A stretch of 64,000 nt of DNA from an uncultured Alphaproteobacteria bacterium (GTDB lineage: Bacteria; Pseudomonadota; Alphaproteobacteria; Rs-D84): the NCBI GenBank assembly GCA_944389385.1, contig CALXMC010000003.1:10356-74355 (forward strand), given 5' to 3'. The translations under genes were made by a program, and so were the position numbers. Position 1 is the stretch's first letter. Each line of letters starts with the position of its first letter. This document shows positions 4,236 through 57,315 of this stretch, in pieces. Below the pieces are notes generated by a model. It made no database searches. It had not been told where the DNA came from and saw only the letters and a list, made by a program, of their open reading frames with translations.

Positions 4236-5324
4236 ATGAGAAAAGTCGGCTTTTTCGCGGCATTGACGGGTGTTTTATTCGGTGCGAACTTCGCGGCGGA
4301 TGCGGTTTATCCTGTTTACAGCGGGTATCAGGGCACAAATGCCAATGGCCAAGTGATTATGTTACCAACCACCAGCGGGACGGTTATGCCGACGAATAAT
4401 CCAAATGTTGCAACGCCCACACGCATAACGGGCACATTGCCACGTGTCGGTTCAAACACAACCCGGGTGTCCAGTACTGTTGCCGGGCGGCAGTATTATC
4501 AACCCGCCGACTTTGATCGTTTGGCGGACAGTGGTCTGTATGTCGGTTTGTCTGTTGGATATTCGGCCAGTATCAGTGGCGGCATGATTTCTGATTATAT
4601 GAATGAAGATGGCGGGCAATTCGTTCCCGGCGCTTTTCAAGAGGCTGCATTTAACACAGATACAGTTATCCCGTTGCAGTTATCGGTCGGCGCATCCATT
4701 AACAACGATTTACGTGTGGATTTTGGGTATTTGCGTTATTCTGGTTTGGCGTACCCCAGTGTTGTCCAATCGGCTGACGGTATTGGCGGCTATGTCGAAG
4801 CAACCGTCGATGGTGGCGCAATTACGTCAAACGCAACCATGCTGAATTTGTATTACAATATCGATTCTTATACTGGATATTTGGCCGGCGGTATGTTGCG
4901 ACCGTATGTCGGTGTTGGTGTTGGTATCGCATTAAATACGATTGCTGATTACGTAGTGTATGACAGCACATTTTATTCCGAAATGGAACCCAGTATGGCC
5001 GGTCCGGGTGACATTACTGGTATATCAGACGTATATGCGTATCACAATGGTGGAACGTCTGAACAACTGGCATTTATGTTCGAAGGCGGTTTAACCACTG
5101 AATTGGACGGCGGAATAAAAATAGATTTCTTTGTCAGATATACAAACCTGGGCAAGGTCAGAACATCGGGCAGTATTGTTTTATCACAAACACAATGGTT
5201 GGGTGACGGTGCAGGTGGCGAATACCCCAACCCATACGACAGTGTTTATCATTACACAAATTGGTACGAAAGTGGCCGGCTTAGCACCGTTGATCTGGGG
5301 TTACGTTTAAGATTACAATTCTGA
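4236..5324 (+). CDS. Outer membrane beta-barrel protein of unknown function
   Basis: Signal peptide MRKVGFFAALTGVLFGANFAA and C-terminal ..LGLRLRLQF. Confidence 0.55.
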   Translation: MRKVGFFAALTGVLFGANFAADAVYPVYSGYQGTNANGQVIMLPTTSGTVMPTNNPNVATPTRITGTLPRVGSNTTRVSSTVAGRQYYQPADFDRLADSGLYVGLSVGYSASISGGMISDYMNEDGGQFVPGAFQEAAFNTDTVIPLQLSVGASINNDLRVDFGYLRYSGLAYPSVVQSADGIGGYVEATVDGGAITSNATMLNLYYNIDSYTGYLAGGMLRPYVGVGVGIALNTIADYVVYDSTFYSEMEPSMAGPGDITGISDVYAYHNGGTSEQLAFMFEGGLTTELDGGIKIDFFVRYTNLGKVRTSGSIVLSQTQWLGDGAGGEYPNPYDSVYHYTNWYESGRLSTVDLGLRLRLQF

Positions 5325-5357
5325 TAATTTTTGTGTGTGCGGGGGGACACAGTTTTT

Positions 5358-7067
5358 ATGAAATCAAACCATTCGATTATTCATTATTCTGTGTTGGCTG
5401 CATTATTGGCGGTCGTCCCGGGCGTTGCAACATCGGCTGTACGTATCGGCAACCATTCGCGCGGGTATTCTTCATACAATAATCAAAATAATCCAACTGT
5501 ACGCAGTCAAATAAATAACCCGGGTAATGCCGTTATGGGTACAGTTGCGCCCGCCCCAACCCCAACAGTAAATGCAACAGAAAATGATTCTGCCGCCGCA
5601 ACAAATGAATCGGACGAACATCTGTCGGCAACTGCATCGCATGAATGCCCTCTGATTTATCCGAATGCAGAAATTGCGTGGGGAACCCCAACAATCGGCG
5701 CGGGCATTGGTGGCGCAGATACATGTGTTGCAACGGTCGAACTGGTTGGATACCAGGCCGCCGAAGACGGCAGTGATTTGGTGTTGGCACGTGCAAATTT
5801 GGCACTGGGGGACACATTCAAATGTAATATTTCTTCTTTCCCCGAAGCCACAATGTATATAGATGCGGTGGAAAGTTTTTATTTCCCAACCGATAATCCA
5901 CCAACCATAGACGACGTCATCGCGCAAATGAACCAAGAACAAAAGCAAAACGCAGGGTTAAAAATTGCTGCGGGGGCTTTGATTGGTGGCCTGGGCGGAA
6001 ACATGGCCGGAACCGGCGATGGGGACAGTTTATTGGGAACTAATAAAGAAAAAGTTCAAAGTACCGTTATTGGTGCTCTGTCGGGGGCTGCGTTAATGGC
6101 GGGCAATACTTACGCCGGTAAAGTGGCGGGGGATGTCATTTTATCAACCGGGGTAAATGCTGCGGCCGGCGGGGTTGTTGGCAATATGGCCCAGACGGGT
6201 GATTCTGTGTTGCGTATCGAAGATTGTACAATTACTGAAAATGGCGTTGAACGTAAAACAACTTGTTTGTGGGGCTCGGTTGCCACAACGGATGCAGGAT
6301 TACAGCCTGGCGAACGCGCATATTACAGAATTGACGACGGGTCGGGAACTACATACGTTTGTTCCGATACAACCGATGCGTCGGGGAATACAAGCACCAG
6401 ATGCAACCAAGAAAGATTGGTAAATATTCGATTGGCCGCTTATCCAAATACAGACATTACCCAAATAAAAGAAGAACAATTCGAAAAAATATATAATACC
6501 ACGTTGGGATTGCAGTATTATATGACAACTGACCTGAACGGAAATGTAGACTTTACGCAATCGGGTGCCAATTCTGATAACGGCATTTGGGCTGAAATCA
6601 GTTCCGCAAATCGTATTAAAAACGAAATTCCTGCGATGATTGAATTGCAAGATAAAGCGTTCGGTTTTTCGTCGGAAGATTGGGATAAGTGGAAAAGAAA
6701 TAATGGCGCGGGCGTTAAAATTTATGGTCGCAGTACCACGGGTAACGCATACGAATTATCTGGGGAAAATGTGGCCAGTATACAAAACTTCTATCCCATG
6801 AAAATCGATGCTGATGATGGTGCCGTGATAGATTTTGGTAACAAAGCCCGTTTGAAAAGTACTCTGATTGGCGCAGGCGTTGGCGGGGCGTTGGGTGGAT
6901 TTACCGCGTACCAAGGCGCACAGTTGGATGTCCAAAATCGTTGGACAACCGCAATGCGTGAATACGAAGATTCTTTAAGTAAGGTCTATTGTCGCAGTGG
7001 TTCAAGATGGCTTAGCCGATATAACGATACTGTGTTTGTACCGGCATCTTTGAACACAGCAGAATAA
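5358..7067 (+). CDS. Secreted hypothetical protein, Gly-rich and Cys-containing
   Basis: ATG at 5358 gives signal peptide MKSNHSIIHYSVLAALLAVVPGVATSA. Contains a Gly/Ala-rich stretch GGLGGNMAGTGDGD. No known domain recognised. Confidence 0.5.
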   Translation: MKSNHSIIHYSVLAALLAVVPGVATSAVRIGNHSRGYSSYNNQNNPTVRSQINNPGNAVMGTVAPAPTPTVNATENDSAAATNESDEHLSATASHECPLIYPNAEIAWGTPTIGAGIGGADTCVATVELVGYQAAEDGSDLVLARANLALGDTFKCNISSFPEATMYIDAVESFYFPTDNPPTIDDVIAQMNQEQKQNAGLKIAAGALIGGLGGNMAGTGDGDSLLGTNKEKVQSTVIGALSGAALMAGNTYAGKVAGDVILSTGVNAAAGGVVGNMAQTGDSVLRIEDCTITENGVERKTTCLWGSVATTDAGLQPGERAYYRIDDGSGTTYVCSDTTDASGNTSTRCNQERLVNIRLAAYPNTDITQIKEEQFEKIYNTTLGLQYYMTTDLNGNVDFTQSGANSDNGIWAEISSANRIKNEIPAMIELQDKAFGFSSEDWDKWKRNNGAGVKIYGRSTTGNAYELSGENVASIQNFYPMKIDADDGAVIDFGNKARLKSTLIGAGVGGALGGFTAYQGAQLDVQNRWTTAMREYEDSLSKVYCRSGSRWLSRYNDTVFVPASLNTAE

Positions 7068-8538: not shown

Positions 8539-10911
8539 CTATTTCCGTAAAAATCCGTATTCATATATTTTAGGTTCGATTTCGGTCGCCAGTTCGCGCA
8601 TCGCAGCGGTTAATTCAGATTCCAGACGATTGAATTCGGCATCATCAGATTTGTTATTCATTTTGCCGTTATCTTTACGGCCTTTGAAAAATTCCTTGAT
8701 ATCATACAGCGATGCATTTGGGTTCGCACCACGGGTATGATAATACCGCCATATTTCCAACCCTGCATTATACACCCCCAGCGCAGCAGGTGATAATGAT
8801 TCCGGTATATGGCGACCAGCCAAAAATTGTGACATAAAATTACTGTCGAACGAAGACGCGCAACCAACCATATCCTCGGTAAATGGAATCCAGTGATTTA
8901 CACCATCATTACTGCTGATACGATTTTGGGTATGGAACAGTGTATAAATCAAACAATTATTCTTAAATTCGTCATCGGATTCGTATAAAAATTCCTGGCG
9001 CGCTTCCAATAAATTATCGGTATCATTTACGGGACGTGATACAGGATACAAAAACTGATCACGGTCATTTAACCAAGTTGCCGGAATAGCATGACGAACA
9101 GCAAAATATATCGCCGCATTTATAACATTTGATTCTGATACGGTTGTTTCATGATGTCCCCGACCATTTGTTGATAAGAACACATAATTTTGGTTTTGAA
9201 AATCGTTTCCAACATAACCCATGACCGCAATTTTATTCTGTGAATTTCGCCATTCATTTTGCCAATCATTCAAAAAACGTGTTCCTGTATTATAAGCAAA
9301 GAACTTTTTACGGCCATTCATTTCGCCGTCATTTTCCAATACATTGCACGATATGTTTGTAATCGGTTGTTTATTGTCTAGATTCCACATTGTAAAGGCG
9401 ATTGGAAAATTGCCCTTTACATTATCAAATGTATTTGCACGAACAACAAATCCACCAATGTATTCCGCACGAAAAAACTCGCGAAATACCGTAAAATTCG
9501 GTGCTGACACTATTTTCAACTTTGAAAATAGTGTCAGCACCGAATGCGGAATTTGCAAATAAATGCGAGTAATAAACTGTGCAAAAACCTCCATGGCAGC
9601 CTTTCCAATCAACTCCATACTTTGATTATGAAATTTTGTTGCCGCTACACCGCTACGAATATTTCTATTTTTAGTATGAGTATCTCCTTCTGCGTACGGT
9701 GGATTGATATAAATTATCAATTTCTGTTGTTCTTCCGGATTCTGAATAATATCATACAAACGATCCGGCATTTTACCGCCATCACGTACGGGTTTAAAAT
9801 CATCATTCAAGAAATCAAACTGAAAAATCTGATTTTCAAACAAATTGCTGTTTTGCCGCATTATTTCAACATCTGGTTCCATCAGGGTGCTGGCAAATAT
9901 ATTACGTCTTTCCTGGGGCAGACCAACCAACATATTCCCCGTACCCGCCGCACAATCCCAAATATACATATCTTTAAAATTATCACCAAATGCGGTCGCC
10001 ATGTATTCTTGGGATTTTTCTACCCAAATTTGTGGTGTAAAAAATGCACCTGTTGTTTCACGAACTTTCTGTGGCACCAATAAATCGCGCCGTTCCTGGA
10101 TTATACGCCAATATTCCCGTTTGGGTGGGCGACGATATTTATTCCAAAATAAATTATGTTTATCTGGATTGATAATTGCATAATCTTTTGTAAATAATTC
10201 TCCGTTAATTTTGACATTTGATTTATACCCGTTGCCACTGCGCAAAATTTTTAATTTATCCAGTTCTGGGATGGATTCGTTATCTTCTGATAATAAATCC
10301 GCCAAATAAAAATCACCCGGTGTTATGCCGACTTTTTTATTATAATCGCTGTTTATGTCGCGAATGTTTCCCCCCAGTTCTTTTTGCCATTTCATAAACA
10401 CAGACACAAAATTATTGGCGTTTATCTTTTTTTGTAAAATTTGTCCCCGTAAACCGCGCCCAGCAATAATTTTAGACAATGCAGATTTTAATTCACGCGC
10501 ATCCGTTTCATATTGATATAAAGATACTTTGCCTTCGGCAAATTTACGTACCAAATCGACAGTTCTTATATCTACGGCACTGGGCGTTTGTAACCAATTC
10601 ATATCACTGGCTGTACTTAACGCTTGGTACAATGGATCAAATTCTATAAAACCGCATTTAACATTATCAAATCCGCCGATGTATTCCGGAAAATCTATTT
10701 TGTCAGAATCGCGGTGAATCGTTAATATTAATTGCGCCAACATACGATAAATATCGGTTTCTTCATGTTTGGCCTCGAAATAAATATACGGCAGTGATAA
10801 ATCAATAGCACCCAAACCGACATTTCCCAAATTAAAATAGTTTTGGAAAATATCTTTGACTTCTTCTTCGCGCCGTGCGGCACGCATTTGCTGAACCAAT
10901 GTGATTGCCAT
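8539..10911 (-). CDS. Single-chain Type IIG (MmeI-like) restriction endonuclease / N6-adenine DNA methyltransferase
   Basis: 790 aa. Start ATG at 10909-10911 with RBS AAGGGGAGA. N-terminal PD-(D/E)xK-like D..EAK (AIDLSLPYIYFEAK). Gamma-class MTase motifs in order: X (TGAFFTPQ), I (WDCAAGTGNMLVG), IV (IYINPPYA), plus about 300 aa of C-terminal target-recognition-like region. GC is markedly lower than flanking DNA (roughly 37% versus 46-48%). Confidence 0.6.
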   Translation of the reverse strand: MAITLVQQMRAARREEEVKDIFQNYFNLGNVGLGAIDLSLPYIYFEAKHEETDIYRMLAQLILTIHRDSDKIDFPEYIGGFDNVKCGFIEFDPLYQALSTASDMNWLQTPSAVDIRTVDLVRKFAEGKVSLYQYETDARELKSALSKIIAGRGLRGQILQKKINANNFVSVFMKWQKELGGNIRDINSDYNKKVGITPGDFYLADLLSEDNESIPELDKLKILRSGNGYKSNVKINGELFTKDYAIINPDKHNLFWNKYRRPPKREYWRIIQERRDLLVPQKVRETTGAFFTPQIWVEKSQEYMATAFGDNFKDMYIWDCAAGTGNMLVGLPQERRNIFASTLMEPDVEIMRQNSNLFENQIFQFDFLNDDFKPVRDGGKMPDRLYDIIQNPEEQQKLIIYINPPYAEGDTHTKNRNIRSGVAATKFHNQSMELIGKAAMEVFAQFITRIYLQIPHSVLTLFSKLKIVSAPNFTVFREFFRAEYIGGFVVRANTFDNVKGNFPIAFTMWNLDNKQPITNISCNVLENDGEMNGRKKFFAYNTGTRFLNDWQNEWRNSQNKIAVMGYVGNDFQNQNYVFLSTNGRGHHETTVSESNVINAAIYFAVRHAIPATWLNDRDQFLYPVSRPVNDTDNLLEARQEFLYESDDEFKNNCLIYTLFHTQNRISSNDGVNHWIPFTEDMVGCASSFDSNFMSQFLAGRHIPESLSPAALGVYNAGLEIWRYYHTRGANPNASLYDIKEFFKGRKDNGKMNNKSDDAEFNRLESELTAAMRELATEIEPKIYEYGFLRK

Positions 10912-11274
10912 TCTCCCCTTCTCCCATAACACAAAAACCGTCAAAGGGAATTGACGGTCGGGGAGTTGGTAAATCAATATATTAGTGATTCTGTTGCTTT
11001 CGGGTTACCCCTGTTATATGACAACAGCCCCCCGACATTAGTGCCAGGGATGATAACGGTGCAAAAAAGACACCGAAAACATCAGATTTAACGATGCTTT
11101 TGCACCGAATATATTGGGCTTACCACAGCCCGAGCCCGCAGGTCCCCCGTTGGGTTCAGTACAATTATATCACTTTTTTAGGTGCAAAACAAACCGCCGA
11201 TAAAATATTTATAAATTTTTCCCAACCAATTGGTAAAAATTGGTTGGGATTACGTGGCATTTAACGATAATTTT

Positions 11275-20396: not shown

Positions 20397-21473
20397 TTAT
20401 TTTAATTCGTCGGCCAATGTCGCAATTGCAATCGCATACCAATTTGAATTATTCCACTTTTTAATCCGATAAAAATTTGGATACGTTAAATAAGCATAAA
20501 TTACAGGTTGCGGGGCAACATCTGTGTCAATCGCATTCGGATCAGGCGTCACAGCCGCACTTGCAATCGCGTTGGCACGTTCTTCTTTTATTTTATCCAC
20601 GTCTGCAACCAAACCCGCCATCATGTCAACAACCGGTATCGGCGAACCATCTGTGTTCGTGACGCCCATCGCCGCCCATTGAGACAACTGATACTTCGTT
20701 TTTCCATCCAGTAACGATACATCAAAATCAGCCGGCAATGCAACACGGCGGACTATACGTTCGTTCGGATTCCACCCCAGTTTATGTAAATAATTTCCCG
20801 CACTGGCCATTGCATCACCCACACTGTGAATAATGTCCACATACCCGTCGCCATTGCCATCCATCCCATATTGTTGCAAAGTTGTCGGAATAAACTGGAA
20901 ATGCCCCATAGCACCCGCCCAACTGCCGCGAATGTCGTTTATGTCCAGATTATTTACATCTGCTATCTTCATCAGTGCCAATAACTGGTTACCAAAAAAC
21001 GTTTCACGCCGCCCGTCGTACATCAAAGTTAAAAACGCATCTGTTAATTTATGCGCTGCGCGATATTGGCCATAATTTGATTCCAAACCCCAAAAAGCCA
21101 AAATCACATGCGGTTGAACACCATAAGTTTGATAAACACGATTCAGCATTGTCGGATATGTATTGCGCATATCGCGGCCATTCTTTATGCGACGCGAATT
21201 AACCGTGCGCGCCAAATAATCATCCAGTGTTAATTTGAATTCAGCCTGATTTTTATCGCTTTTAACAATCGATGGAATAAATGCAGGATATTTCAATGTC
21301 GCGTCAATCGTTGCGTCAGATATGCCATTCGCAGATGCGCGTTCGCGCACATTATCCAAAATACTGTACCACCGCGTTACATCAAATGCACCACGATCCG
21401 CGTGCACCGCACATGGTAAAAACACCATCATCGCAGCGCCCATCAGGCGTGCGATACAGTTACGATAATTCAT
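20397..21473 (-). CDS. mltB: Lytic murein transglycosylase B
   Basis: ATG at 21471-21473 with RBS AAGGGG. Motifs WGLESNYG and AGAMGHFQFIP. Confidence 0.75.
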   Translation of the reverse strand: MNYRNCIARLMGAAMMVFLPCAVHADRGAFDVTRWYSILDNVRERASANGISDATIDATLKYPAFIPSIVKSDKNQAEFKLTLDDYLARTVNSRRIKNGRDMRNTYPTMLNRVYQTYGVQPHVILAFWGLESNYGQYRAAHKLTDAFLTLMYDGRRETFFGNQLLALMKIADVNNLDINDIRGSWAGAMGHFQFIPTTLQQYGMDGNGDGYVDIIHSVGDAMASAGNYLHKLGWNPNERIVRRVALPADFDVSLLDGKTKYQLSQWAAMGVTNTDGSPIPVVDMMAGLVADVDKIKEERANAIASAAVTPDPNAIDTDVAPQPVIYAYLTYPNFYRIKKWNNSNWYAIAIATLADELK

Positions 21474-21484
21474 AATCACACCCC

Positions 21485-22960
21485 TTAAAACGAGTATTTT
21501 AATCCGACATGCAATCCGAATGATTGCCAATTTGCATGATCCAATTGGTCACTGATATATTCAGTGCTGGCCGGGACAGTTTCCAATATTGGCAAACCAT
21601 TGTCGTCCAATATGTAATATCCGTTTTCATCCACCAACCATTGCGTATATTCAGCCAAATACAACTCGCCCCCGATTGCACCAACGTGGAAGAAATTTGT
21701 GTCGACCTTGATTGCAATCTGCATGCGGTCAGATATGCGATAATTATACTCCATTTCCGCCGCATACGAATATGCACCATTGTTGCCTTCGTCGATAAAA
21801 CTGGGGTTTTGTTGCCAATCAGTACGATTTGGCCATATACCTTCGGACGAATAATTTGGTAATCCAACTTGAACATAGAAACGCAAATTATCCTTTAACG
21901 TCATTTGCTTTTCTATTTCCAAACCGACGTAAAAACCAGACCATGTTGTGTTATAAATATGTGTTGTTCCTTCGACTATGATTGGGCCGTCGCCACCAAT
22001 AACAACACATTCACCAGAATCCACACCCCACGGAATATAGCCCATATTCGGGTCGTAATCGCCGGTTACCAGCGATTGCCCCAACCCCATAATTCCGCCG
22101 GCATTATTCGTCTGGACCAATTTAATATCTTCTGGCGACATACATACCTGATACCAATCTTCGGACGGTTCGACATTTATCGGAACAGAATAATAATTAC
22201 CCTCGACATCGCCAAAGACATAGTCGCCATTACTGGTCATTAACGGTAAAAATATTCCCTGGTTCGGATAGTAATGGTCGGACATTTCCAAGTTATGATT
22301 AAATATTTCATACCCAATCGAAGGCGATATTTTCCATCCACCAACATCCCATGCGTTATGCGCCCCAATTCCAACCTTGAAATGATTTGTACGACCGGTT
22401 TGCCCACCAACAGAAATTGTAAATATGCCATAATACGGATCCGAGGCATCATACGGTTCCAAATCATAATCCATAGACAGGCCGCCATGATTCATGAAAC
22501 CCATGCTGTATTCACCGTACGCAAACATATCAAAACTGCGAATACTGAAATTATGACGCAATCCGACGGTAAATTCGTCGTATATCATGTCATCCCATTC
22601 CAACACAGAATTAACACCTGTCTTGAATTCAAAATCAGCAAAACGACGTGCATACGTCGCATACAGCGTGGTTTTATCCTGGGGCGGCATGGCGATGCCA
22701 TTCGCGGTCATGGTACCTTCAAACTTTGGTAAAGTCGGACGCGGAACCTGGTACGAATAAGAATTTGTTCCAACGATTTGCTTGCTTCCAGATTGACCAA
22801 CGTATTGGGTATATCCCTGGTTCGCGTAATTGCCGTACGCCGCGCGATTTACCGTGGTTGTATCATTTTTTTGATAATATGATGGCACCCCCTCGTTCGA
22901 CGCAAAAGCCACGGTGGGTATCAACATTCCCAACAAAAAAGCAAAACTTCCTTTCTTCAT
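21485..22960 (-). CDS. Outer membrane beta-barrel protein of unknown function
   Basis: Signal peptide MKKGSFAFLLGMLIPTVAFA. 491 aa. C-terminal ..GLKYSF. Stop is 11 nt upstream of mltB, so probably co-transcribed. Confidence 0.55.
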   Translation of the reverse strand: MKKGSFAFLLGMLIPTVAFASNEGVPSYYQKNDTTTVNRAAYGNYANQGYTQYVGQSGSKQIVGTNSYSYQVPRPTLPKFEGTMTANGIAMPPQDKTTLYATYARRFADFEFKTGVNSVLEWDDMIYDEFTVGLRHNFSIRSFDMFAYGEYSMGFMNHGGLSMDYDLEPYDASDPYYGIFTISVGGQTGRTNHFKVGIGAHNAWDVGGWKISPSIGYEIFNHNLEMSDHYYPNQGIFLPLMTSNGDYVFGDVEGNYYSVPINVEPSEDWYQVCMSPEDIKLVQTNNAGGIMGLGQSLVTGDYDPNMGYIPWGVDSGECVVIGGDGPIIVEGTTHIYNTTWSGFYVGLEIEKQMTLKDNLRFYVQVGLPNYSSEGIWPNRTDWQQNPSFIDEGNNGAYSYAAEMEYNYRISDRMQIAIKVDTNFFHVGAIGGELYLAEYTQWLVDENGYYILDDNGLPILETVPASTEYISDQLDHANWQSFGLHVGLKYSF

Positions 22961-28060: not shown

Positions 28061-28852
28061 TTATCTGACAAACGGATTGTATACATTTGTGTTACGTTGT
28101 AATTCTTCCAAATTCAGCGATATACACACGCGCAGCCTGTTAACACATTCCATCATTTCTTGTCTGTTATTTTTTTTCGATGCAGATGTGCATTTTTGGT
28201 GTGCTTCGCAATAAGGTGTGGAATATGTCGCAGTTTGTTCGTCGTATTCACATTCAACTTTTTCCAAACGGTCAAACATTCTTAACACGCCCATATCTGT
28301 TTCCAATTGGCGTTTTGCGGCACCAATATCGGCATCATTTATCGCGGTTGTAATTCTGTCCAGATTACGTGACAAACATTCCATAACGTCTTTGGTCAAT
28401 CCGGCATTTATGCAATTTTCTGCGCCAGTTACACCATTATTCCCCGTCAAAGACGATCCAGACGACGCGCGTTCAGACGATGATGCGCCCGCGGTTTCGA
28501 ATTTGGTGGTTAAAATTTCGCGTTCCAATTGCGTTTTTAATCGTTGAACAGTTGCTTCAAGATATTCGTACTGTTTATACATTTGTTGCATAATGACGGT
28601 GGATTTTAATGCAACCACATCGCGCATCAGTTGCCGATCAGATGCGTTTGTCGGATTTTCTGTAAGACCAAGATTGTACGCATGCGTGCTGCACAATGCC
28701 AACATCGGCACAATGCGGTTATTGTCATCTTTATCGCAACCGTTACTGACCGTTGCGGCCATGACGGGTGTGCCCACGCACATCACGCCCAACACAGCAC
28801 ATAACACGCACGAAATTTTTAACCTGTCAAAAATGCCACGTTTCAATTTCAT
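28061..28852 (-). CDS. Secreted cysteine-rich coiled-coil protein (P1), unknown function
   Basis: ATG at 28850-28852 (RBS AGGTGGA) overlaps the stop of the upstream gene (ATGA). Signal peptide MKLKRGIFDRLKISCVLCAVLGVMCVGTPVMA. Cys clusters flank a predicted coiled coil. Confidence 0.5.
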   Translation of the reverse strand: MKLKRGIFDRLKISCVLCAVLGVMCVGTPVMAATVSNGCDKDDNNRIVPMLALCSTHAYNLGLTENPTNASDRQLMRDVVALKSTVIMQQMYKQYEYLEATVQRLKTQLEREILTTKFETAGASSSERASSGSSLTGNNGVTGAENCINAGLTKDVMECLSRNLDRITTAINDADIGAAKRQLETDMGVLRMFDRLEKVECEYDEQTATYSTPYCEAHQKCTSASKKNNRQEMMECVNRLRVCISLNLEELQRNTNVYNPFVR

Positions 28853-38920: not shown

Positions 38921-41605
38921 TCAGAAACGTAATCGCGCACGAATGCGGCCTGTGTAATTTATATAATCCTGGCGAAAGTGGGCGGAAATTCCGAAGTCGA
39001 TTTGCGTAAATTCATTGAATTGCGCGCCCAATTTTAATTCTGTATCAAATGCAAAACGCGGTAAAGTCGTGCCAATTATTACGTACGCTGCATCATTTAC
39101 ATTAACGTATAAATCGTCTGCTTTCGTGTGCATGTCATACGACGCGCCAATCGTAACAGATGGCGTAAGTTCCACACCCGCCAAATACCAATTGCCGCGC
39201 GTTACAGACATATTGGCGTATGCTGTTAAAAAATCCAAATCCGCAGCCACGATACTTTGCCCCGCATCATCAGCCGTATCGTCGCGATGAACAGCCATAT
39301 ATCGCACACCTGCGCGTGGCAACATGTGCCAAGACGCATGCGCAAAATCATATCCGACATCACCCCATGCACTGTATGTGATCATGTTCAGTGAACTGTC
39401 CAATTGCAATCCCGCAACATTTTTTGTTTCGCCCCAGTCTGAAAAAAACGCCGCGCCCGCCATGCGAATTACAAAATTATCAGGCGAGTATTTTGCATAT
39501 ACCCCACCACCATGGGTTGGCACGTGTATTGTGCGTGCCCAACTTTTTAATCTGTCGTATTGGTATGCGTATGCCGCGCCAAATGTCCAATTACCATCAG
39601 CATATTCTGCGCCGATGCCGCCACCGAATCCATACATATCAAAATCTGCGTACTGTTGCGATGCGCCCAGTTTTCCGCCGCCACCAAATCCAGTCGCCCA
39701 TACATTTAATCCACCAATATTGTACTTGGTTGCATCGTTAATCATCGCATCAAATCGCGAAACTTTCGTGTTTGACACTATATGCGTCAGTGGCGCAGAC
39801 GACGGCGCCAGCGCACTTAACGCACGGATATATCCAATCGCATCCGTTTGCAGCAAAGTATTCATTCGCAGATATAATGTGTGCGCCAGACTGCCGGGGG
39901 TATCTGGTTCCAATTGCCATGCGGCGGCTGTGCGGACATTATTTTGTGTACCACCATTATTGGTTATGACATCTGCGAAACTGTCGCCGGCGCTGATTTC
40001 GTACCACCCGTCCCCCAATTTCAAGAATTCATAAATATTATTATTTATGTTTGGCGAAAAATTATCAGCAATTTCATTTTCACTGCGTAATAACTGGACA
40101 CGAATATTATTTGCATCGCCCAATGCGTTTGGCGATAAAATAACACTAAGATTTGCCCCGTCTGATATGCTGAAATTGTTTGCGGTTACATTACCATACG
40201 CGGTTGCATCTGTCACAGATAATTGCAATGTGACACCCGATGCAAATGCTGCATTCGTCACAGAAAACGACGCCGCGCCCAAATCCAATATGCCGCCCAA
40301 AACATTCAAATCCGACGTTGTAAAAAATTGCCCGTTATCCGATAAAGTCACATTACCATTATAAATCGTAACATTTCCCGCAAATCCAGACATATCGGCG
40401 TTTAATATAACTGCCCCGCCTGTCGGCACATTTTGCGCATCGTATATATATGGACGATTTATGATTATTTCACCGCCGCCTGTGATTGCATCATTAAATG
40501 TGACACTGCGCGACGCGCCCGCGTTTATGTTAAGCATATCAGTACTGTGAATCGCGTTTGATTGCCCCGCCACCGTGTTGCCGTTAAAGTTTATGTCTGT
40601 GTTGTTGGCAATCAAGTATAACTGGGCCAAGTTAAATATTGCACCGCCATTGTCTGTGGCTGAATTATTTTCAAAACTGCTGTCGATAATGTACATATCG
40701 TCCCAGTTATAAACCGCGCCACCGTATGTTGCACTGTTGCCATTAAAGTAAGAATCAGACACCGCGGCATACAATGTATCCCCAATAATTCCATAATTAC
40801 CAATCGCGCCGCCTGTGTCACCGGTATTATTTTCAAACGTGCCGCCGGTTAAATTCATTGCCCCAGTCGAATAAATCGCACCGGCTGTATCGGTCGCGTT
40901 ATTGCCAACAAATCGCACATTGGTTAAATTCATGGTGTTTGAATTATATAACGCGCCACCGCCACCACTGGACGAGTTTGATGTAAATACACTGTTGGAA
41001 ATATTTAACGTGCCGTCGTTAAATGCCACACCACCATACCCGTTCGGCGCAGTATTATTTTGAAATGTTGCACCATCAAACGTGGCGATTGTTTCATATT
41101 CGTTGTATATCACACCGCCATCACCGCGCGTTACTTGGTTTGCGTCAAACGTAACATTTTGCGCGCTGAATGTGGCGTTATTGTTTTGATATATAACACT
41201 GCCGCCATAGTTGGATGTGTTATTTGCAAATACAGAATTACTTGTTGTTACATTTCCGCCCAGATTTGTGAACACACCGCCCTGGGGACGATTAAAGTTG
41301 TTAAAGGATGTATTCGATGCAGAAACGCCACCGTTTATCAGCGTGAAATTATAACCACTGGACACTGTAAATCCGTTAAATCCACCGCCATTAAAATCAA
41401 ATCCGCCGCCATCGATAACCGTTGTTTGCGCCCCAGGCGCAGTTACCAACCGCGTGGCCGTTATATCGGACGTGATTGTTATATCGTTTTGCGTGGCTGC
41501 TGTTTTATATAAACTGTAAAAAGTATCAAAATCAGGCGCGTCCGCTGCATACGCAGGTACAGCCATTATACCCAAAATTACAATCAAAGATGTTTTGCGT
41601 TTCAT
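38921..41605 (-). CDS. Type Va autotransporter with polymorphic-membrane-protein (Pmp)-like passenger repeats
   Basis: RBS AAGGGGA. Signal peptide MKRKTSLIVILGIMAVPAYA. Passenger domain with many GGA[IVL] and FxxN repeats (GGAIY, GGAVY, FENN, FNGN). C-terminal beta-barrel translocator ending RIRARLRF. Confidence 0.75.
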   Translation of the reverse strand: MKRKTSLIVILGIMAVPAYAADAPDFDTFYSLYKTAATQNDITITSDITATRLVTAPGAQTTVIDGGGFDFNGGGFNGFTVSSGYNFTLINGGVSASNTSFNNFNRPQGGVFTNLGGNVTTSNSVFANNTSNYGGSVIYQNNNATFSAQNVTFDANQVTRGDGGVIYNEYETIATFDGATFQNNTAPNGYGGVAFNDGTLNISNSVFTSNSSSGGGGALYNSNTMNLTNVRFVGNNATDTAGAIYSTGAMNLTGGTFENNTGDTGGAIGNYGIIGDTLYAAVSDSYFNGNSATYGGAVYNWDDMYIIDSSFENNSATDNGGAIFNLAQLYLIANNTDINFNGNTVAGQSNAIHSTDMLNINAGASRSVTFNDAITGGGEIIINRPYIYDAQNVPTGGAVILNADMSGFAGNVTIYNGNVTLSDNGQFFTTSDLNVLGGILDLGAASFSVTNAAFASGVTLQLSVTDATAYGNVTANNFSISDGANLSVILSPNALGDANNIRVQLLRSENEIADNFSPNINNNIYEFLKLGDGWYEISAGDSFADVITNNGGTQNNVRTAAAWQLEPDTPGSLAHTLYLRMNTLLQTDAIGYIRALSALAPSSAPLTHIVSNTKVSRFDAMINDATKYNIGGLNVWATGFGGGGKLGASQQYADFDMYGFGGGIGAEYADGNWTFGAAYAYQYDRLKSWARTIHVPTHGGGVYAKYSPDNFVIRMAGAAFFSDWGETKNVAGLQLDSSLNMITYSAWGDVGYDFAHASWHMLPRAGVRYMAVHRDDTADDAGQSIVAADLDFLTAYANMSVTRGNWYLAGVELTPSVTIGASYDMHTKADDLYVNVNDAAYVIIGTTLPRFAFDTELKLGAQFNEFTQIDFGISAHFRQDYINYTGRIRARLRF

Positions 41606-54713: not shown

Positions 54714-54787
54714 TGGCAGGGGCAGAAGGAATCGAACCCTCATCCGCGGTTTTGGAGACCGATATTCTACCGTTGAACTATGCCCCT
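54714..54787 (-). tRNA. tRNA-Trp (anticodon CCA)
   Basis: Reverse complement AGGGGCATAGTTCAACGGTAGAATATCGGTCTCCAAAACCGCGGATGAGGGTTCGATTCCTTCTGCCCCTGCCA. Canonical position upstream of secE. Confidence 0.9.
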
Positions 54788-54901
54788 GTTGCCTGTAAAA
54801 TCACCCGTCTTGCGCGCCGTCTGACCCCGCAGTCGGGGTAAAGATAGCACAACAATACAGAAAATCAAGCGGAATTATTATACTTTTTTAATTTTATCAC
54901 T

Positions 54902-54958
54902 GCAAGCAAAAAATAGTAACCAGTAACGAGTTACAAGTAACTATTTTTTGCTTGCGCA
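54902..54958. repeat. 57-bp palindrome: 15-bp AT-rich stem enclosing four GTAAC/GTTAC pentamers
   Basis: GCAAGCAAAAAATAG-TAACCAGTAACGAGTTACAAGTAAC-TATTTTTTGCTTGC. Lies in the divergent region between tRNA-Trp and virB8. Confidence 0.7.
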
Positions 54959-55008
54959 GTTGTCTGCTTTTTTTCTACAATCTGGTTAATAGTAAGGAGA
55001 GGACCCAA

Positions 55009-55704
55009 GTGGCAACACGTATAGAACCGCCGATTTTACTGTCCAGATTGTTGATTTTTGTGTTCGCCGCAATGGTTGTTGTGTTGGGTGTATTGGGGGT
55101 TACATTATATAATATGTACCCGTTGGACAGACCCCAGATATTCTTTTTGATGACCGCGCCACAAAATAATCTGGATATTGTTGTGGCTGAGATGGTTCCC
55201 AATGAAGGCGAAATGTTTGATAATTTCAAGCGCACGTTTATTCGTGAATATATTCGGGCACGCAATGAAATCGTGCCAGATGCACGCATAATGCGCGAAA
55301 AATGGAGCAACGGTGCCGAAGGCGTCGTAAATTCTTGGTCAACATCGGAAATTTATAACGATTTTACAAAAACAAATATGTGGAACGCGTGGATGAGTGG
55401 CGTTCCAGATTTTGAATTTTCTTGTTCTGTTGAATTTGAAACTGGCGCAATCGAGCCACGCGATCGCGCAGGAACTGAATATTCGGTCAATTTCAGATAC
55501 TTTTGTTCAGATAGTGATAGACAGATGGATAAAAAAGATTATAAAATAAGGGTAAAGTTGGATATGGCGGACGGAACCCAAATAAAATGGGGGGAACGTC
55601 TGAATAATCCACTGGGGATACGTGTTTCTGAATATGTAATTGAATCGGGAAATGGCGACCCACTGGATACCGGGTATCTGGATACAACCGGCATAACCCA
55701 GTAG
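55009..55704 (+). CDS. virB8: Type IV secretion system protein VirB8
   Basis: GTG start at 55009 with RBS AAGGAGAGG 5 nt upstream. 231 aa. Short cytoplasmic N-terminus, one TM (LLIFVFAAMVVVLGVLGV), periplasmic NTF2-like domain with the VirB8 signature FKRTFIREYIRARNEIVPD. Confidence 0.65.
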   Translation: MATRIEPPILLSRLLIFVFAAMVVVLGVLGVTLYNMYPLDRPQIFFLMTAPQNNLDIVVAEMVPNEGEMFDNFKRTFIREYIRARNEIVPDARIMREKWSNGAEGVVNSWSTSEIYNDFTKTNMWNAWMSGVPDFEFSCSVEFETGAIEPRDRAGTEYSVNFRYFCSDSDRQMDKKDYKIRVKLDMADGTQIKWGERLNNPLGIRVSEYVIESGNGDPLDTGYLDTTGITQ

Positions 55705-55728
55705 CCACGAACAGGAAGGAAAACAGTC

Positions 55729-57264
55729 ATGACGTTTGCAAGTATGTTAAAATTAAATGTATCTGTGTTGTGCATTGCGATGCTGTGCGCGAATGCCTTG
55801 GCCGCGGAATATGGCATACAAAGTGCGTGGGATAACCCAACCGCCAATATGGCCGAAGGCAGTTTGAAGCCTGGATATGCACAATTGCCTTGGTCGCACG
55901 GCAGCGTTTTGCCCATCAAGTTGCGCAACGGAATGACCACTTTGGTCACATTGCCAAACGGCGAAAAAATTGCAGACGCAGTGGTGGGAAATGAAAATCT
56001 GTTTTCAATCGCTGCAACCCAGGGCGGCAGTACTATGTTTATTACACCCGCCGCATCAAATCAAGGATCTGATACAAACTTGATCGTCACGGGCGAGTCC
56101 GGCAATCAGTACATATTCTATCTGCGCAGTGAACCTTCTAATTCCAGCGAAATCACATATTCCCAGGTTGATATTACATTGGGCGATAATACGTTTTTGC
56201 CGAATGCCACAACGGCAACATCAACAAATGCGTCGGGGTCTATTTTCAAAAAGGTATCCAATGCCACAACGAATACAATCGGTGTTGATGGCGAGGATTA
56301 TGGTTGGATTAAATCCATGAAAATTGACCCGTCTGAATTCCGATTTGATTTGGATATTTTTGTTCCAAATCCAGACGATTATGTTATTGCACCTGAACGT
56401 GTGTGGCGCGACCAGATATTTACATACATAGATTTCGGGGACAAGGTTATTTCCATGACACAACGTCCGGTCGTATCACTGTTAATCGAGGGCGGCGAAT
56501 CCCCCGTCGGATTCCGCACCGATGGCGAAGATGGACGATTGCTGATTGTCGAGGCCGTTGGCGACATGGTTTTACGCAGTGGGCAACGTATCGTTTGTAT
56601 TAAAAAGCGTGCAAAGCCGTTCTTGATTGCAGATACAGCATCCGTTATGGCACTGGCCGAGGCGAATGTTGCACAATCCATCATGTCGGGACAATCGCTG
56701 AATAACATTGCATATACGTCCGATATGAATGCGATTAACGCGTCTGCGAATGGTTATGCAACCACACCGATGATGATGGGCAATATGCCGATGGGTGGCG
56801 CTACGTCTGGCTACTATGCGCCGGCGGGGTATGCAATGCCAACCCAGATGTATGGTGGCACCACTGGCGGCGGGACAAGCGGACTGAATATGATTCCAAC
56901 CGAAAGATTGACGGCGGGGTCATTCTTGCCCCAAACCAGTATCCCGCTGATTTCCAGTAATCAAACTGGGGTTGCGGTTGAATTAAAATCGGATACATCT
57001 GTCAAGGCATTGGATGATTATTGGGCAAACTTGTTGGCCAAGTTCAGTGGTGCTGATGGCCAAGGCATTTTGACCCCGTACAAGAACATGGTATATTTTG
57101 CCGTTGACGAACAAGGTGTTGGCGAATTGGGGGCTGAATCTTCGACTGCACGCTTGTATCGTTTACGCATTGGGCCTTTGTCCGATGTTGTAACAGCCCA
57201 AGAATTGTGCAATAAGTTATTGCAATTCAGCGGTACCAGTTGCAATGTCGTGCGGGTACAGTAA
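55729..57264 (+). CDS. virB9: Type IV secretion system protein VirB9/TrbG fused to a C-terminal SPOR (peptidoglycan-binding) domain
   Basis: Signal peptide MTFASMLKLNVSVLCIAMLCANALA. VirB9 N-domain TLVTLPNGEKI..ENLFSI..MFITPA and C-domain ..GRLLIVEAVGDMVLRSGQRIVCIKKR. Then about 130 aa of Gly/Met/Thr-rich linker. Then ..ARLYRLRIGPLSDVVTAQELCNKLLQFSGTSCNVVRVQ, which matches the SPOR consensus (yRvrvGpf..a..l..L). Confidence 0.7.
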   Translation: MTFASMLKLNVSVLCIAMLCANALAAEYGIQSAWDNPTANMAEGSLKPGYAQLPWSHGSVLPIKLRNGMTTLVTLPNGEKIADAVVGNENLFSIAATQGGSTMFITPAASNQGSDTNLIVTGESGNQYIFYLRSEPSNSSEITYSQVDITLGDNTFLPNATTATSTNASGSIFKKVSNATTNTIGVDGEDYGWIKSMKIDPSEFRFDLDIFVPNPDDYVIAPERVWRDQIFTYIDFGDKVISMTQRPVVSLLIEGGESPVGFRTDGEDGRLLIVEAVGDMVLRSGQRIVCIKKRAKPFLIADTASVMALAEANVAQSIMSGQSLNNIAYTSDMNAINASANGYATTPMMMGNMPMGGATSGYYAPAGYAMPTQMYGGTTGGGTSGLNMIPTERLTAGSFLPQTSIPLISSNQTGVAVELKSDTSVKALDDYWANLLAKFSGADGQGILTPYKNMVYFAVDEQGVGELGAESSTARLYRLRIGPLSDVVTAQELCNKLLQFSGTSCNVVRVQ

Positions 57265-57299
57265 GTTACTGGTTACTCGTAACTCGTTACTTGTGGGGG
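57265..57299 (+). repeat. GTTACTC heptad repeat array (4 units) immediately after the virB9 stop
   Basis: TAA GTTACTG GTTACTC GTAACTC GTTACTT GTGGGGG. Confidence 0.75.
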
Positions 57300-57315
57300 A
57301 AGATGGCGGTTAATT

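Follow-up and report, generated by a model that had tools for sequence, protein, structure and literature searches.

A VirB9-family protein with a divergent SPOR-family domain at its C-terminus in uncultured gut Alphaproteobacteria

The window analysed in this study, a stretch of 64,000 nucleotides from an uncultured alphaproteobacterium of the order Rs-D84, harbors a cluster of virB8, virB9 and virB10 homologs. The virB9-SPOR fusion gene (55729..57264, + strand) consists of a single reading frame of 511 amino acids plus stop without internal stop codon and is sandwiched between virB8 on its 5′ side and virB10 on its 3′ side. The features of the cluster are the following.

55009..55704, + strand: virB8 homolog, immediately upstream of the fusion gene (Pfam VirB8, E 2.7e-7, 31.1 bits against a cut-off of 23.2)
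55729..55806, + strand: probable Sec signal peptide, aa 1–26, MTFASMLKLNVSVLCIAMLCANALAA, read directly from the sequence
55882..56607, + strand: VirB9/CagX core, aa 52–293 (Pfam PF03524, TIGR02781, Foldseek)
56614..56751, + strand: conserved post-core segment, aa 296–341, KPFLIADTASVMALAEANVAQSIMSGQSLNNIAY..., predicted helical (85% mean identity, 28 homologs)
56752..56889, + strand: low-complexity flexible linker, aa 342–387, rich in Gly, Thr, Met, Tyr, Ala and Pro (composition, 57% identity, length variation)
56890..56967, + strand: conserved lead-in to the SPOR-like domain, aa 388–413, MIPTERLTAGSFLPQTSIPLISSNQT (81% identity, 28 homologs)
56968..57261, + strand: divergent SPOR-family domain, aa 414–511 (AlphaFold2, Foldseek, hhalign)
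56980..56982, + strand: Glu418, codon GAA, at the position of the canonical Gln (FtsN Q251, DamX Q351, RlpA Q270) according to the alignment register
57160..57162, + strand: Arg478, retained equivalent of FtsN R285 and RlpA R309 (Arg in 81/81 genomes and 17/18 fused tails)
57208..57243, + strand: from Cys494 in helix α2 to Cys505 at the start of strand β4, both invariant across the alignments and in 81/81 genomes
57316..59817, + strand: virB10 homolog of 833 aa, immediately downstream (Pfam TrbI, 59 bits against a cut-off of 35; NF038091 T4SS_VirB10, E 2.5e-15)

The called virB8 gene encodes 231 aa (gene call by synteny in L083), while the mechanical open reading frame starts at 54952. In the virB10 product the TrbI/VirB10 domain occupies aa 396–607 and is flanked by long N- and C-terminal extensions. 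The gene order virB8-virB9-virB10 is kept in L083–L085 as well as in the distant homolog P0130, and the 511-aa protein was called in identical form on 19 independent metagenome contigs. The three genes are located between the rpoBC/ribosomal-protein operon and yidC, and the fusion gene, as part of this chromosomal virB8-virB9-virB10 cluster, encodes a VirB9 subunit located in the periplasm. A plasmid origin of the fusion was considered and rejected, given the rpoBC/yidC neighbourhood and the lack of any match of the extension among the 72,556 plasmids of PLSDB. Pfam scans of 27 further open reading frames revealed no other T4SS component (including VirB4, VirB6, VirB11 and VirD4) within the window, no small lipoprotein or VirB7-like gene is found within the trio itself, and an Rfam scan of the ORF-poor stretch 3′ of virB10 gave no match. 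The window also encodes a housekeeping SLT_2 lytic transglycosylase; since, in addition, RodA, MreB and MrdA have been reported for the order Rs-D84 (PMC12306168), the organism has a cell wall.

The VirB9 core is matched almost completely by the CagX/VirB9 model PF03524 (77 bits against a cut-off of 34.2, E 2e-21, model positions 5–197 of 198), which also matches 28 of 28 homologs. The equivalog model TIGR02781 aligns to aa 54–292 with 53.5 bits, far below the NCBIfam equivalog cut-off of 217.7, and by its sequence the protein is therefore a divergent member of the VirB9 family and not an equivalog of Agrobacterium-type VirB9. The core is subdivided into an N-terminal β-sandwich (approximately aa 50–145), a Thr/Ser/Asn-rich inter-domain linker (approximately aa 146–190) and a C-terminal domain. 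The model of the N-terminal domain superposes on the corresponding domains of TrwF/VirB9 (PDB entries 8rt6_v and 7o3t_B) with Foldseek E-values of 2–4e-9, TM scores of 0.75–0.78 and an rmsd of 2.5 Å; further matches are X. citri VirB9, DotH, TraK and CagX (6x6j_AX). In the full-length AlphaFold model, for which a shallow alignment led to a mean pLDDT of only 44, folded parts are restricted to the N-terminal domain (pLDDT about 70–80 in aa 60–140) and the tail. The region expected to form the C-terminal β-sandwich, in VirB9 the O-layer domain that binds VirB7 and VirB10, is modelled with pLDDT values of 20–30, although it lies inside both the Pfam and the TIGRFAM alignments.

A probable signal peptide, an N-terminal β-sandwich, an inter-domain linker, a C-terminal domain as assigned by profile alignment and flanking virB8 and virB10 genes are shared with other members of the VirB9/TrbG/CagX family such as TrwF of R388, TraO of pKM101 and X. 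citri VirB9. The signal peptide contains no lipobox, both of its cysteines being preceded by leucine. While canonical VirB9 proteins end around aa 250–300, the fusion protein continues for another 218 residues comprising a helix, a linker and a SPOR-like domain. CagX of Helicobacter pylori, a VirB9 homolog of 522 aa, is similar in its length of about 500 residues, but its extra mass is N-terminal and not a SPOR domain, whereas the extension described here is C-terminal.

The extension begins where the canonical VirB9 families stop, the Pfam and TIGRFAM models ending at aa 292–293. Helices 303–320 and 333–341 of the post-core segment are present in the full-length model with low confidence. The subsequent linker (12 Gly, 7 Thr, 7 Met, 5 Tyr, 5 Ala and 4 Pro among 46 residues) is conserved to 57% as compared to 83% in the flanking domains, varies in length between 28 and 50 aa among the 28 homologs and has pLDDT values below 30 in the full-length model. 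This Gly/Met/Thr/Tyr-rich stretch had been proposed in the original prediction, together with the length of 511 aa and the complete VirB9 core, and all of these are borne out. Its low-complexity composition, low conservation and length variation indicate a flexible tether, which matches the usual layout of SPOR proteins, where the domain is placed on a disordered low-complexity linker (PMC6895207). The lead-in carries the motif [LI]P..[IV]P[LV][IV], which recurs in most distant fused tails of the alignment. In the AlphaFold2 model the SPOR-family domain is built from β1 (414–422), α1 (425–440), β2 (455–461), β3 (475–484), α2 (487–501) and β4 (506–510), and with 83% identity among the 28 homologs it is as conserved as the VirB9 core. 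Judged by its conservation, the whole C-terminal extension is under purifying selection. In this protein, sequence and model thus show VirB9 followed by a conserved helix and a variable linker of some 45 residues, and at the end a domain of roughly 100 residues that is homologous to SPOR domains and is predicted to share their fold.

Against Pfam SPOR (PF05036) the full-length protein scores 16.3 bits and the tail alone 20.3–20.5 bits, just short of the gathering cut-off of 21, and the aligned part in the 511-aa protein comprises only model positions 37/38–76, i.e. the C-terminal half, to which the terminal segment cited in the original prediction corresponds. All 28 close homologs, by contrast, match the model at E≤0.1 (best 7e-8), as do 14 of 18 diverse fused-type tails at E≤1e-3; of these 18, a demonstrable VirB9 core is present on the same polypeptide in 13, while P0125 and P0135 begin with the end of a VirB9 core and P0144, P0151 and P0153, all of them fragments, were assigned to the set solely on the similarity of their tails. 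The Pfam match suggested as a check on the domain is hence found for the family, but for this individual sequence it stays below the threshold. A narrow tail profile of 18 Enterousia-type sequences retrieved no SPOR domain among the PDB sequences but chance matches, mostly antibody chains, because SPOR domains are too divergent; wider profiles and hhalign were used instead. The fused tails aligned by hhalign with 15 free SPOR domains, each of which passes Pfam SPOR over the full model, with 99.2% probability and an E-value of 1.1e-19 over 86 columns. Among PDB sequences, the mixed and free profiles matched best to the SPOR domains of CwlC and FtsN.

Owing to the poor full-length model the tail was modelled alone with a diverse alignment, resulting in an AlphaFold2 model with pLDDT 82.3 and pTM 0.72 and the predicted succession E-H-(H)-E-E-H-E, i.e. 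β-α-β-β-α-β. The top three PDB entries found by Foldseek are the SPOR domains of RlpA (6i09_A and 6i05, TM 0.69–0.72) and DedD (6ztg), with modest E-values of 1.5e-3 to 7e-3 for a query that is itself a predicted model. An OmpA-family match was not detected in Pfam scans of the protein and the tail. By sequence and predicted fold the C-terminal domain belongs to the SPOR family, as the original prediction had it, and the fold expected there is the one obtained.

The fold, the C-terminal placement on a disordered linker and the periplasmic location are common to the tail and the SPOR domains of FtsN, DamX, DedD and RlpA (PF05036; PDB codes 1UTA, 6I05/6I09 and 6ZTG), as is a β3 strand of the type YRLRxGP containing the equivalent of FtsN Arg285. 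Differences are the replacement of the canonical glutamine (251 in FtsN, 270 in RlpA) by glutamate, the loss of the aromatic from the QxG[AS][FY] motif, a polar residue at the position of I313, an additional acidic β2-β3 loop and a pI of about 5. Moreover, the cysteine pair is placed in α2 and β4 in the tail, compared to β1 and β4 in FtsN, and the protein carrying the domain belongs to a secretion system instead of to division or wall remodelling. A disulfide between Cys494 and Cys505 is likely. The same pair is common to free alphaproteobacterial SPOR domains, and the nearest sequence relatives of the tail are free multi-SPOR proteins of Alphaproteobacteria (P0142–P0163), which share the invariant cysteines, the YRLRxGP motif and the tryptophan of α1. 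These proteins lack a VirB9 part, contain two or three SPOR repeats, keep the motif WVQLG[ST][FY] and are mostly basic in their SPOR domains (pI above 8 in 11/15). This relationship and the common motifs suggest that the tail was acquired within the Alphaproteobacteria.

The fusion is conserved in 81/81 genomes of the Candidatus Enterousia type (this one and 80 others at species level) and in about a dozen clusters of less than 50% identity, all from uncultured Alphaproteobacteria, the full-length architecture being present in hundreds of homologs of 465–537 aa. Its hosts, uncultured Alphaproteobacteria that are abundant in the gut, have genomes smaller than 1 Mb (Candidatus Enterousia, order Rs-D84). 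The database search proposed for VirB9-SPOR fusions has thus produced a family spanning the genus-level Enterousia clade and more distant lineages, while neither such a fusion nor a SPOR domain associated with a type IV secretion system (T4SS) was found described in the searchable literature, in agreement with the view that the fusion had gone unreported; the word SPOR is absent from the ICEclc T4SS paper.

The glycan-binding face deviates from that of classical SPOR domains. In RlpA, Gln270, which corresponds to FtsN Gln251 and is the one residue highly conserved across SPOR domains, hydrogen-bonds the glycan, its amide nitrogen acting as donor towards the NAM lactyl carboxylate and the N-acetyl oxygen of NAG (PMC6895207). 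Arg309 of RlpA, equivalent to Arg285 of FtsN, is a basic β3 residue contacting the lactyl group of NAM, most of the glycan contacts in RlpA are made by backbone atoms, and the side chain of FtsN Ser254 is dispensable (PMC6895207). With the exchange Q251E, the SPOR domain of FtsN localises less well to septa, and its binding to denuded glycans is lowered but not abolished (bioRxiv 10.1101/2024.05.13.594014).

The position of this glutamine is taken by Glu418, and the residue is glutamate in 81/81 Enterousia-type genomes. In the comparison of fused and free domains, sets chosen after the fact from one profile search, it is Glu in 17 of 18 fused tails and Asp in the eighteenth, against Gln in 15/15 free SPOR domains. 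The register is gap-free, with a spacing of 14 residues between Glu or Gln and the tryptophan of α1 in both families, and on this register Glu418 would point into the cleft. The aromatic residue of QxG[AS][FY] is missing in 18/18 fused tails and present in 15/15 free domains; in Enterousia, Lys420 takes the place of the motif's glycine, and the I313-equivalent position (Asn506 here) is polar in 15/18 fused tails as opposed to Leu, Ile or Val in 14/15 free domains. Ser421, equivalent to Ser254, is variable in distant tails, and Leu476 in place of Trp283 is hydrophobic like Leu307 of RlpA. Like their counterparts in glycan-binding SPOR domains, Arg478 and Arg480 on β3 are invariant. The tail domain is acidic (pI about 5), though charge alone does not separate the classes, as 4/15 free SPOR domains are acidic or neutral too. 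The same Enterousia-type genomes keep a canonical SPOR domain with the glutamine (GVQFGAFSS...YRVRA, the VQFGAF type) on a DacA-like protein.

The glycan pocket thus naturally holds a substitution that weakens binding in FtsN, and because the binding face is systematically remodelled (Gln to Glu, the aromatic, the I313-equivalent, the Gly and the charge), the classical denuded glycan is probably not the ligand. Some glycan binding could nevertheless survive, since most contacts in RlpA are made by the backbone and Q251E merely reduces the affinity.

Canonical VirB9 ends in the O-layer just beneath the outer membrane and is present in about 14–16 copies per core complex, as seen in T4SS structures such as those of R388 and pKM101. 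From every machine a skirt of tethered SPOR-like domains would thus reach into the periplasm, roughly to the depth of the cell wall. We regard it as somewhat more probable than its negation that these domains form a built-in, SPOR-derived envelope anchor or positioning device with altered ligand specificity, comparable in its role to DotK of Legionella pneumophila. In such a device the fold and Arg478 would have been kept while the specificity changed, many weakly binding tethered copies could provide avidity, and the ligand may be a modified wall glycan or another envelope partner instead of the classical denuded glycan. A wall-anchoring function is what we infer from the anatomy of the protein only. 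More tentatively, and with the balance tilting against it, the VirB9 tails may represent an unrecognised Glu-type, acidic and ligand-switched SPOR subfamily, about 14 copies of which fix or position the chromosomal T4SS; its ligand could be a wall feature carrying positive charge (N-deacetylated glycan or glycan ends, for example) or else an envelope protein dedicated to this role, and its users would be gut Alphaproteobacteria with reduced genomes that are probably host- or cell-associated.

Other explanations have to be weighed against this anchor of altered specificity. A role of the SPOR fold as a recruited module for protein-protein contacts without any peptidoglycan binding, docking to the unusually long VirB10 (833 aa), to VirB8 or to neighbouring tails in an extra periplasmic ring, appears unlikely, yet it would account for the lost cleft residues and the inverted charge as well as for the strongly conserved elements peculiar to fused tails, namely the lead-in (aa 388–413) and the acidic β2-β3 loop VDEQGVGELG. 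Candidate partners are provided by the large lineage-specific extensions of the adjoining VirB10, and interactions of SPOR domains independent of glycans have been raised as a possibility for FtsN (bioRxiv 10.1101/2024.05.13.594014). On the other hand, a tether that is variable, of low complexity and some 45 residues long would suit a domain reaching for a distant, extended target like the sacculus better than a fixed structural contact, and the invariance of Arg478 and Arg480 is that of glycan-binding SPOR domains.

The original prediction, i.e. that a canonical SPOR domain binds denuded (stem-peptide-free) glycan strands and tethers the outer-membrane core of the T4SS to amidase-processed peptidoglycan, is not supported as stated, and we consider it distinctly improbable. 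On this reading the machine might in addition be directed to septa or new poles. The original prediction also named the domain as a possible stand-in for a missing VirB7 or VirB1; the virB8-virB9-virB10 trio contains no gene for a small lipoprotein, but the window does encode the SLT_2 lytic transglycosylase. Homology, fold and the retained equivalent of FtsN Arg285 and RlpA Arg309 agree with it, the mostly backbone-mediated contacts of RlpA would tolerate sequence changes (PMC6895207), and about 14 tethered copies could offset a weak affinity of the single domain. However, the carboxylate of Glu418 cannot donate the hydrogen bonds of the glutamine and would repel the lactyl carboxylate, and the equivalent FtsN mutant Q251E is reduced in binding and localisation (bioRxiv 10.1101/2024.05.13.594014). 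The acidic change is found in 81/81 genomes and all distant fused tails, whereas the DacA-like SPOR protein keeps its glutamine; besides, the aromatic and the I313-equivalent are altered and the domain is acidic. An artefact, be it the erroneous joining of two genes during sequencing or assembly or a chance resemblance to a generic α/β domain, is hardly credible. The sub-threshold Pfam score of the single sequence and the failure of the narrow family profile to find SPOR domains among PDB sequences would fit chance resemblance, but the hhalign probability of 99.2% and the three top-ranking SPOR folds argue against it. A frameshift that makes the tail a separate gene, named beforehand as what would overturn the fusion, is effectively refuted by the conserved full-length architecture, and so is a mis-assembly: the frame is continuous, the protein is identical on 19 contigs and the same architecture recurs in 80 other genomes and in clusters of less than 50% identity.

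Wall-binding extensions are known from other envelope-spanning machines, e.g. the OmpA-like domains of TssL/TagL in type VI secretion systems (T6SS), GspA in type II secretion systems (T2SS), the LysM domains of TsaP/FimV in type IV pili (T4P), and MotB. Their folds are OmpA-like, PG_binding_1 or LysM, they belong to different subunits of different machines, and to our knowledge none of them is a SPOR domain on VirB9. The principle would be the same in the fusion protein, namely a wall-binding module wired to an envelope-spanning machine, and T2SS, T6SS and T4P indeed depend on peptidoglycan-binding proteins (PMC10266036). In the type IVB Dot/Icm system of L. pneumophila, DotK is the peptidoglycan-binding subunit of the outer-membrane core complex, which it anchors and helps to confine to the poles; it is a lipoprotein of its own, has an OmpA-like fold and recognises the peptide moiety (meso-DAP), its binding depending on N-acetylation of the glycan (PMC10266036). 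Both cases would have a wall-binding module built into a T4SS core, a functional analogy only. In contrast to DotK, the tail is SPOR-derived, contains no lipobox, is covalently attached to VirB9 and belongs to a VirB/type IVA-like system. No core complex of a type IVA system is known to us to carry a wall-binding module, and DotK of type IVB is the clearest precedent.

The fusion links the fields of SPOR domains and T4SSs and suggests that some T4SSs anchor themselves by fusing a domain directly to VirB9. In the literature covered, all characterised SPOR domains bind denuded glycans and act in cell division or wall turnover. If the tails do form a ligand-switched subfamily, they would be the first SPOR folds put to use beyond cell division and wall remodelling, and also the first whose specificity is not for denuded glycans. 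The clade-wide replacement of Gln by Glu next to a canonical SPOR domain in the same genome is a natural experiment which can show whether the SPOR fold is able to evolve new ligands. For the organisms themselves, the conservation of a chromosomal T4SS whose envelope adaptations are lineage-specific hints at physical contact with other cells.

One open reading frame, 511 codons long before its stop, makes up the fusion gene at positions 55729-57264 (forward strand), and its product is identical on 19 independent metagenome contigs. CagX/VirB9 (PF03524) is matched by residues 52-293 in Pfam (77 bits against a cut-off of 34.2, E 2e-21), and the protein belongs to the VirB9/CagX family; NCBIfam TIGR02781 (VirB9) aligns to residues 54-292 with a score far below its equivalog cut-off. 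By eye, residues 1-26 resemble a Sec signal peptide and contain no lipobox. The gene lies within a trio:

55009-55704, VirB8 homolog (weak match), adjoining virB9
55729-57264, forward strand, VirB9 with the C-terminal extension
57316-59817, forward strand, TrbI/VirB10 homolog of 833 amino acids, adjoining virB9

The trio (54714-59817) is wedged between the secE-nusG-rplKAJL-rpoBC block, located with tRNA-Trp upstream on the opposite strand, and yidC and lspA downstream; flanked by housekeeping genes, it is therefore chromosomal and embedded among them. The same trio, also among housekeeping genes, is found at the locus of the distant fusion P0130 (rpsB-tsf-virB8-virB9-(733-aa ORF), locus L081). 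No virB4, virB6, virB11 or virD4 was found near the trio, no other T4SS gene among the 27 further window ORFs scanned, and no small lipoprotein gene within the trio; tblastn gave no match to the extension in 72,556 plasmids. This scattering of chromosomal T4SS genes resembles the rvh arrangement of Rickettsiales. A housekeeping SLT_2 (MltB-like) lytic transglycosylase is encoded at 20397-21530 on the reverse strand (E 7e-89). One or more wall enzymes able to cleave glycan are thus present in the organism, a point relevant to the VirB1 part of the original suggestion that the tail may stand in for VirB7 or VirB1. Downstream of virB10, about 1.2 kb (59850-61050) without a long ORF or an Rfam match contain two pairs of direct repeats, both spaced about 700 nt (71 nt at 59940/60650, 93% identical; 37 nt at 59865/60537, 89% identical), and an inverted repeat of 29 nt (60178-60206/60295-60323, 97% complementary).

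Both VirB9 profiles stop at residues 292-293, beyond which the protein continues in four parts:

Residues 296-341, conserved, probably helical segment (85% mean identity, 28 homologs)
Residues 342-387, linker of 46 residues (G12, T7, M7, Y5, A5, P4), 57% conserved
Residues 388-413 (window 56890-56967), conserved lead-in, 81%
Residues 414-511, C-terminal domain, 83% conserved, equal to the VirB9 core

The linker measures 28-50 residues among the homologs. A complete core followed by a flexible linker rich in Gly, Met, Thr and Tyr and a terminal folded segment, as originally described, is thus an accurate account of the protein.

Assignment of the C-terminal domain to the SPOR family was borne out by the family and by the fold, but not by the single sequence in Pfam. 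In the full protein, PF05036 matches residues 471-508 with 16.3 bits (cut-off 21) and with the C-terminal half of the model only, and the isolated tail reaches 20.3-20.5 bits, about half a bit under the cut-off. All 28 aligned close homologs match PF05036 at E<=0.1 (best 7e-8), and among the 120 top-ranking database homologs, 15 carry precomputed annotation with both PF05036 and PF03524. When a profile of the tail was run against 1.84 billion cluster representatives, only 44 proteins were retrieved; besides VirB9-linked tails, these were alphaproteobacterial proteins with two or three domains of the classic 'WVQLGSF...YRLRxGPF...C.VV' kind. Fifteen such free domains were extracted, all of which pass Pfam SPOR across the full model (best E 3.5e-16), and in hhalign they match 18 diverse VirB9-type tails (fused tails) with 99.2% probability (E 1.1e-19, 86 columns). 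The AlphaFold2 model of the tail with a diverse alignment (mean pLDDT 82.3, pTM 0.72) displays the order beta-alpha-beta-beta-alpha-beta. Its top three Foldseek matches in the PDB are all SPOR domains, namely P. aeruginosa RlpA (6i09_A and 6i05, structures with and without denuded glycan; TM 0.69-0.72 on target) and DedD (6ztg); the E-values, 1.5e-3 to 7e-3, are no better than modest, which is to be expected of an alpha/beta fold so small and so common. We accordingly place the tail in the SPOR superfamily, as a divergent member. Two elements, a [LI]P..[IV]P[LV][IV] motif in the lead-in and an acidic beta2-beta3 loop 'VDEQGVGELG' (residues 459-472), occur in VirB9-linked tails only and are absent from free SPOR domains.

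The fusions looked for in databases were found in quantity. The genome collection returned 198 relatives, the best 80 of which are full-length and 73-87% identical; they come from gut MAGs (human, chicken, horse, ruminant, mouse and rabbit) labelled Candidatus Enterousia, uncultured Alphaproteobacteria or 'Rickettsiales'. In a local hmmsearch, a profile of the VirB9 core revealed the fusion also in more distant representatives, mutually less than 50% identical, both full-length (P0123, P0130 with 463 residues, P0134 with 496, P0137 with 520, P0147 with 577 and P0160 with 547) and N-terminally truncated (P0131, P0132, P0138, P0140, P0155, P0164). Those named stem from Alphaproteobacteria or Rickettsiales MAGs, and source names, where given, go no further than 'TrbG/VirB9 family P-type conjugative transfer protein' or 'hypothetical protein'. 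Within the uncultured order Rs-D84, Enterousia has genomes below about 1 Mb and encodes RodA, MreB and MrdA (PMC12306168), and therefore has a wall. The window also encodes envelope proteins whose kinds are characteristic of host-associated bacteria:

38921-41605, reverse strand, Chlamydia polymorphic-membrane-protein repeats (E 9e-11)
21485-22960, reverse strand, Protochlamydia 'Pom' outer-membrane protein (E 2e-10)
3099-4100, forward strand, weak autotransporter beta-domain

Five large ORFs (362-812 aa) stay without a Pfam match when the threshold is relaxed to E 0.05 and, given a genome of about 1 Mb and a chromosomal T4SS, may encode surface proteins or effectors specific to the lineage:

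8539-10977, reverse strand
28849-31245, reverse strand
32378-34696, reverse strand
5331-7067, forward strand
4236-5324, forward strand

In the joint alignment, strand beta1 reads '[VI][AS][VIL]E[LIF]' in every VirB9-type tail versus 'WVQLG[ST][FY]' in every free SPOR domain. MAFFT joins both blocks gap-free; in hhalign the consensus 'IavEL' falls opposite 'ywVQL', and the alpha1 Trp follows at the same 14-residue spacing in each family; and the free-SPOR profile aligns its Gln to Q251 in 'WMVQCGSF' of E. coli FtsN (PDB 1UTA) and the first Arg of 'YRLR' to R285. From these three independent results, E418 corresponds to FtsN Q251 and RlpA Q270, and R478 to FtsN R285 and RlpA R309; E418 would, by homology, be placed in the cleft. 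The five positions of FtsN mutagenesis and motif neighbours were tabulated for both sets, which were assembled post hoc from one profile search, the free set being biased to alphaproteobacterial relatives of the tail. A VirB9 core is demonstrable on the same polypeptide for only 13 of the 18 fused-type tails, P0125 and P0135 beginning with the end of the core and P0144, P0151 and P0153 being short fragments grouped by tail similarity alone.

Table. Mutagenesis-mapped and motif positions (FtsN numbering) in 18 fused tails and 15 free SPOR domains.
Q251: fused E 17/18, D 1/18; free Q 15/15
F255 (motif aromatic): fused F/Y/W 0/18; free F/Y/W 15/15
I313: fused polar (S/N/H/R) 15/18; free L/I/V 14/15, A 1/15
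S254: fused S in window protein, variable elsewhere; free S/T/A
W283: fused hydrophobic; free mostly hydrophobic
R285: fused R 17/18; free R 15/15
Cys pair (alpha2/start of beta4): fused invariant; free invariant

The motif Gly is Lys (K420) in Enterousia, and the S254 side chain is reported dispensable (PMC6895207). The pI is 4.5-5.6 in 16 of the 18 fused domains and above 8 in 11 of the 15 free domains, charge alone failing to separate the classes as four free domains are not basic. In the window and the 80 related genomes alike, E418, R478, R480, C494 and C505 are invariant (81/81), and position 506 varies among S, N, H and T. Judged by its residues, the binding site of the tail is non-canonical.

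Seven related loci (L014, L003, L024, L005, L022, L001, L011) reach about 10 kb downstream of virB9 and provide an internal control. At their far end, on the reverse strand past window position 64000, they contain part of a D-Ala-D-Ala-carboxypeptidase-like gene, whose product has an SxxK motif ('SLTK') and a C-terminal canonical SPOR domain ('...GVQFGAFSS...GMYRVRANNLSE...GIDCYIFH') retaining Gln and aromatic, with 'YRVRA' present. The classical motif is therefore maintained in the same organism where classical function is expected, and the Glu that VirB9 carries has been selected throughout the lineage in the secretion-system copy and does not reflect drift of a decaying genome. Fusion of a PBP5-like enzyme to SPOR is uncommon in itself.

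An artefact is highly improbable: a frameshift or separate gene is excluded by the single ORF, the identical protein on many contigs and the family evidence, and chance resemblance to SPOR by the hhalign, AlphaFold2 and Foldseek results. Binding of denuded glycan in the classical manner, by which the original prediction had VirB9 tethered, appears improbable, with the key Gln exchanged for Glu or Asp in every fused tail and the motif aromatic missing. Among SPOR domains, high conservation of a side chain is seen at RlpA Q270 only, where the amide nitrogen donates hydrogen bonds to the NAM lactyl carboxylate and the NAG N-acetyl oxygen (PMC6895207), and FtsN SPOR Q251E, the state invariant in the 81 genomes, shows less septal localisation and less denuded-glycan binding and serves as a binding-defective allele (bioRxiv 10.1101/2024.05.13.594014). 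In favour of such binding, RlpA contacts glycan mostly via backbone atoms (PMC6895207), and Q251E lowers FtsN binding without abolishing it (bioRxiv 10.1101/2024.05.13.594014). A pure protein-protein role is possible, though we consider it rather unlikely; the extended VirB10 could be a partner. That protein is about twice the usual size, its TrbI/VirB10 domain spanning only residues 396-607, preceded by an N-terminal TM segment, a stretch rich in PEPEP and, at residues 59-130, a weak match to the Ig-like 'choice-of-anchor D' family, and followed by about 225 residues with a Cys-rich end (CEGGALPDANGCCPGETYTDMGEQGFNCCPDGGGDCFPPIL).

The secreted VirB9, encoded within a conserved virB8-9-10 cluster, carries on a tether a domain that derives from SPOR, is capable of forming a disulfide and is under strong purifying selection. 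In the structures from R388, pKM101 and X. citri, the VirB9 C-terminal domain sits in the O-layer beneath the outer membrane in about 14-16 copies. By analogy with these, and by the Foldseek fold matches, it would be placed in the O-layer here, and the helix, together with some 45 residues of linker, would be long enough for SPOR-like domains arranged in a ring to extend as far as the sacculus. We lean towards a built-in envelope anchor or positioning device, DotK-like in role, which would differ from classical SPOR domains in ligand specificity. In the Dot/Icm core complex of Legionella, the lipoprotein DotK, which is OmpA-like, binds peptidoglycan depending on glycan acetylation state and helps to confine the machine to the poles (PMC10266036). 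Although the tail belongs to the SPOR superfamily, it lacks the most characteristic functional residue, and its likeness to such a wall-binding accessory is therefore one of analogy.

As expected, the fusion appears undescribed: a literature search found no paper mentioning VirB9 together with a SPOR domain, and source annotations leave it unflagged, although for some members the two domains are listed in automated Pfam tables. Equipping trans-envelope machines with peptidoglycan-binding modules is a known theme, and the fusion itself is a tidy, unsurprising domain accretion. Unexpected, and testable, is the clade-wide natural 'Q251E' state beside a canonical SPOR domain in the same genome.
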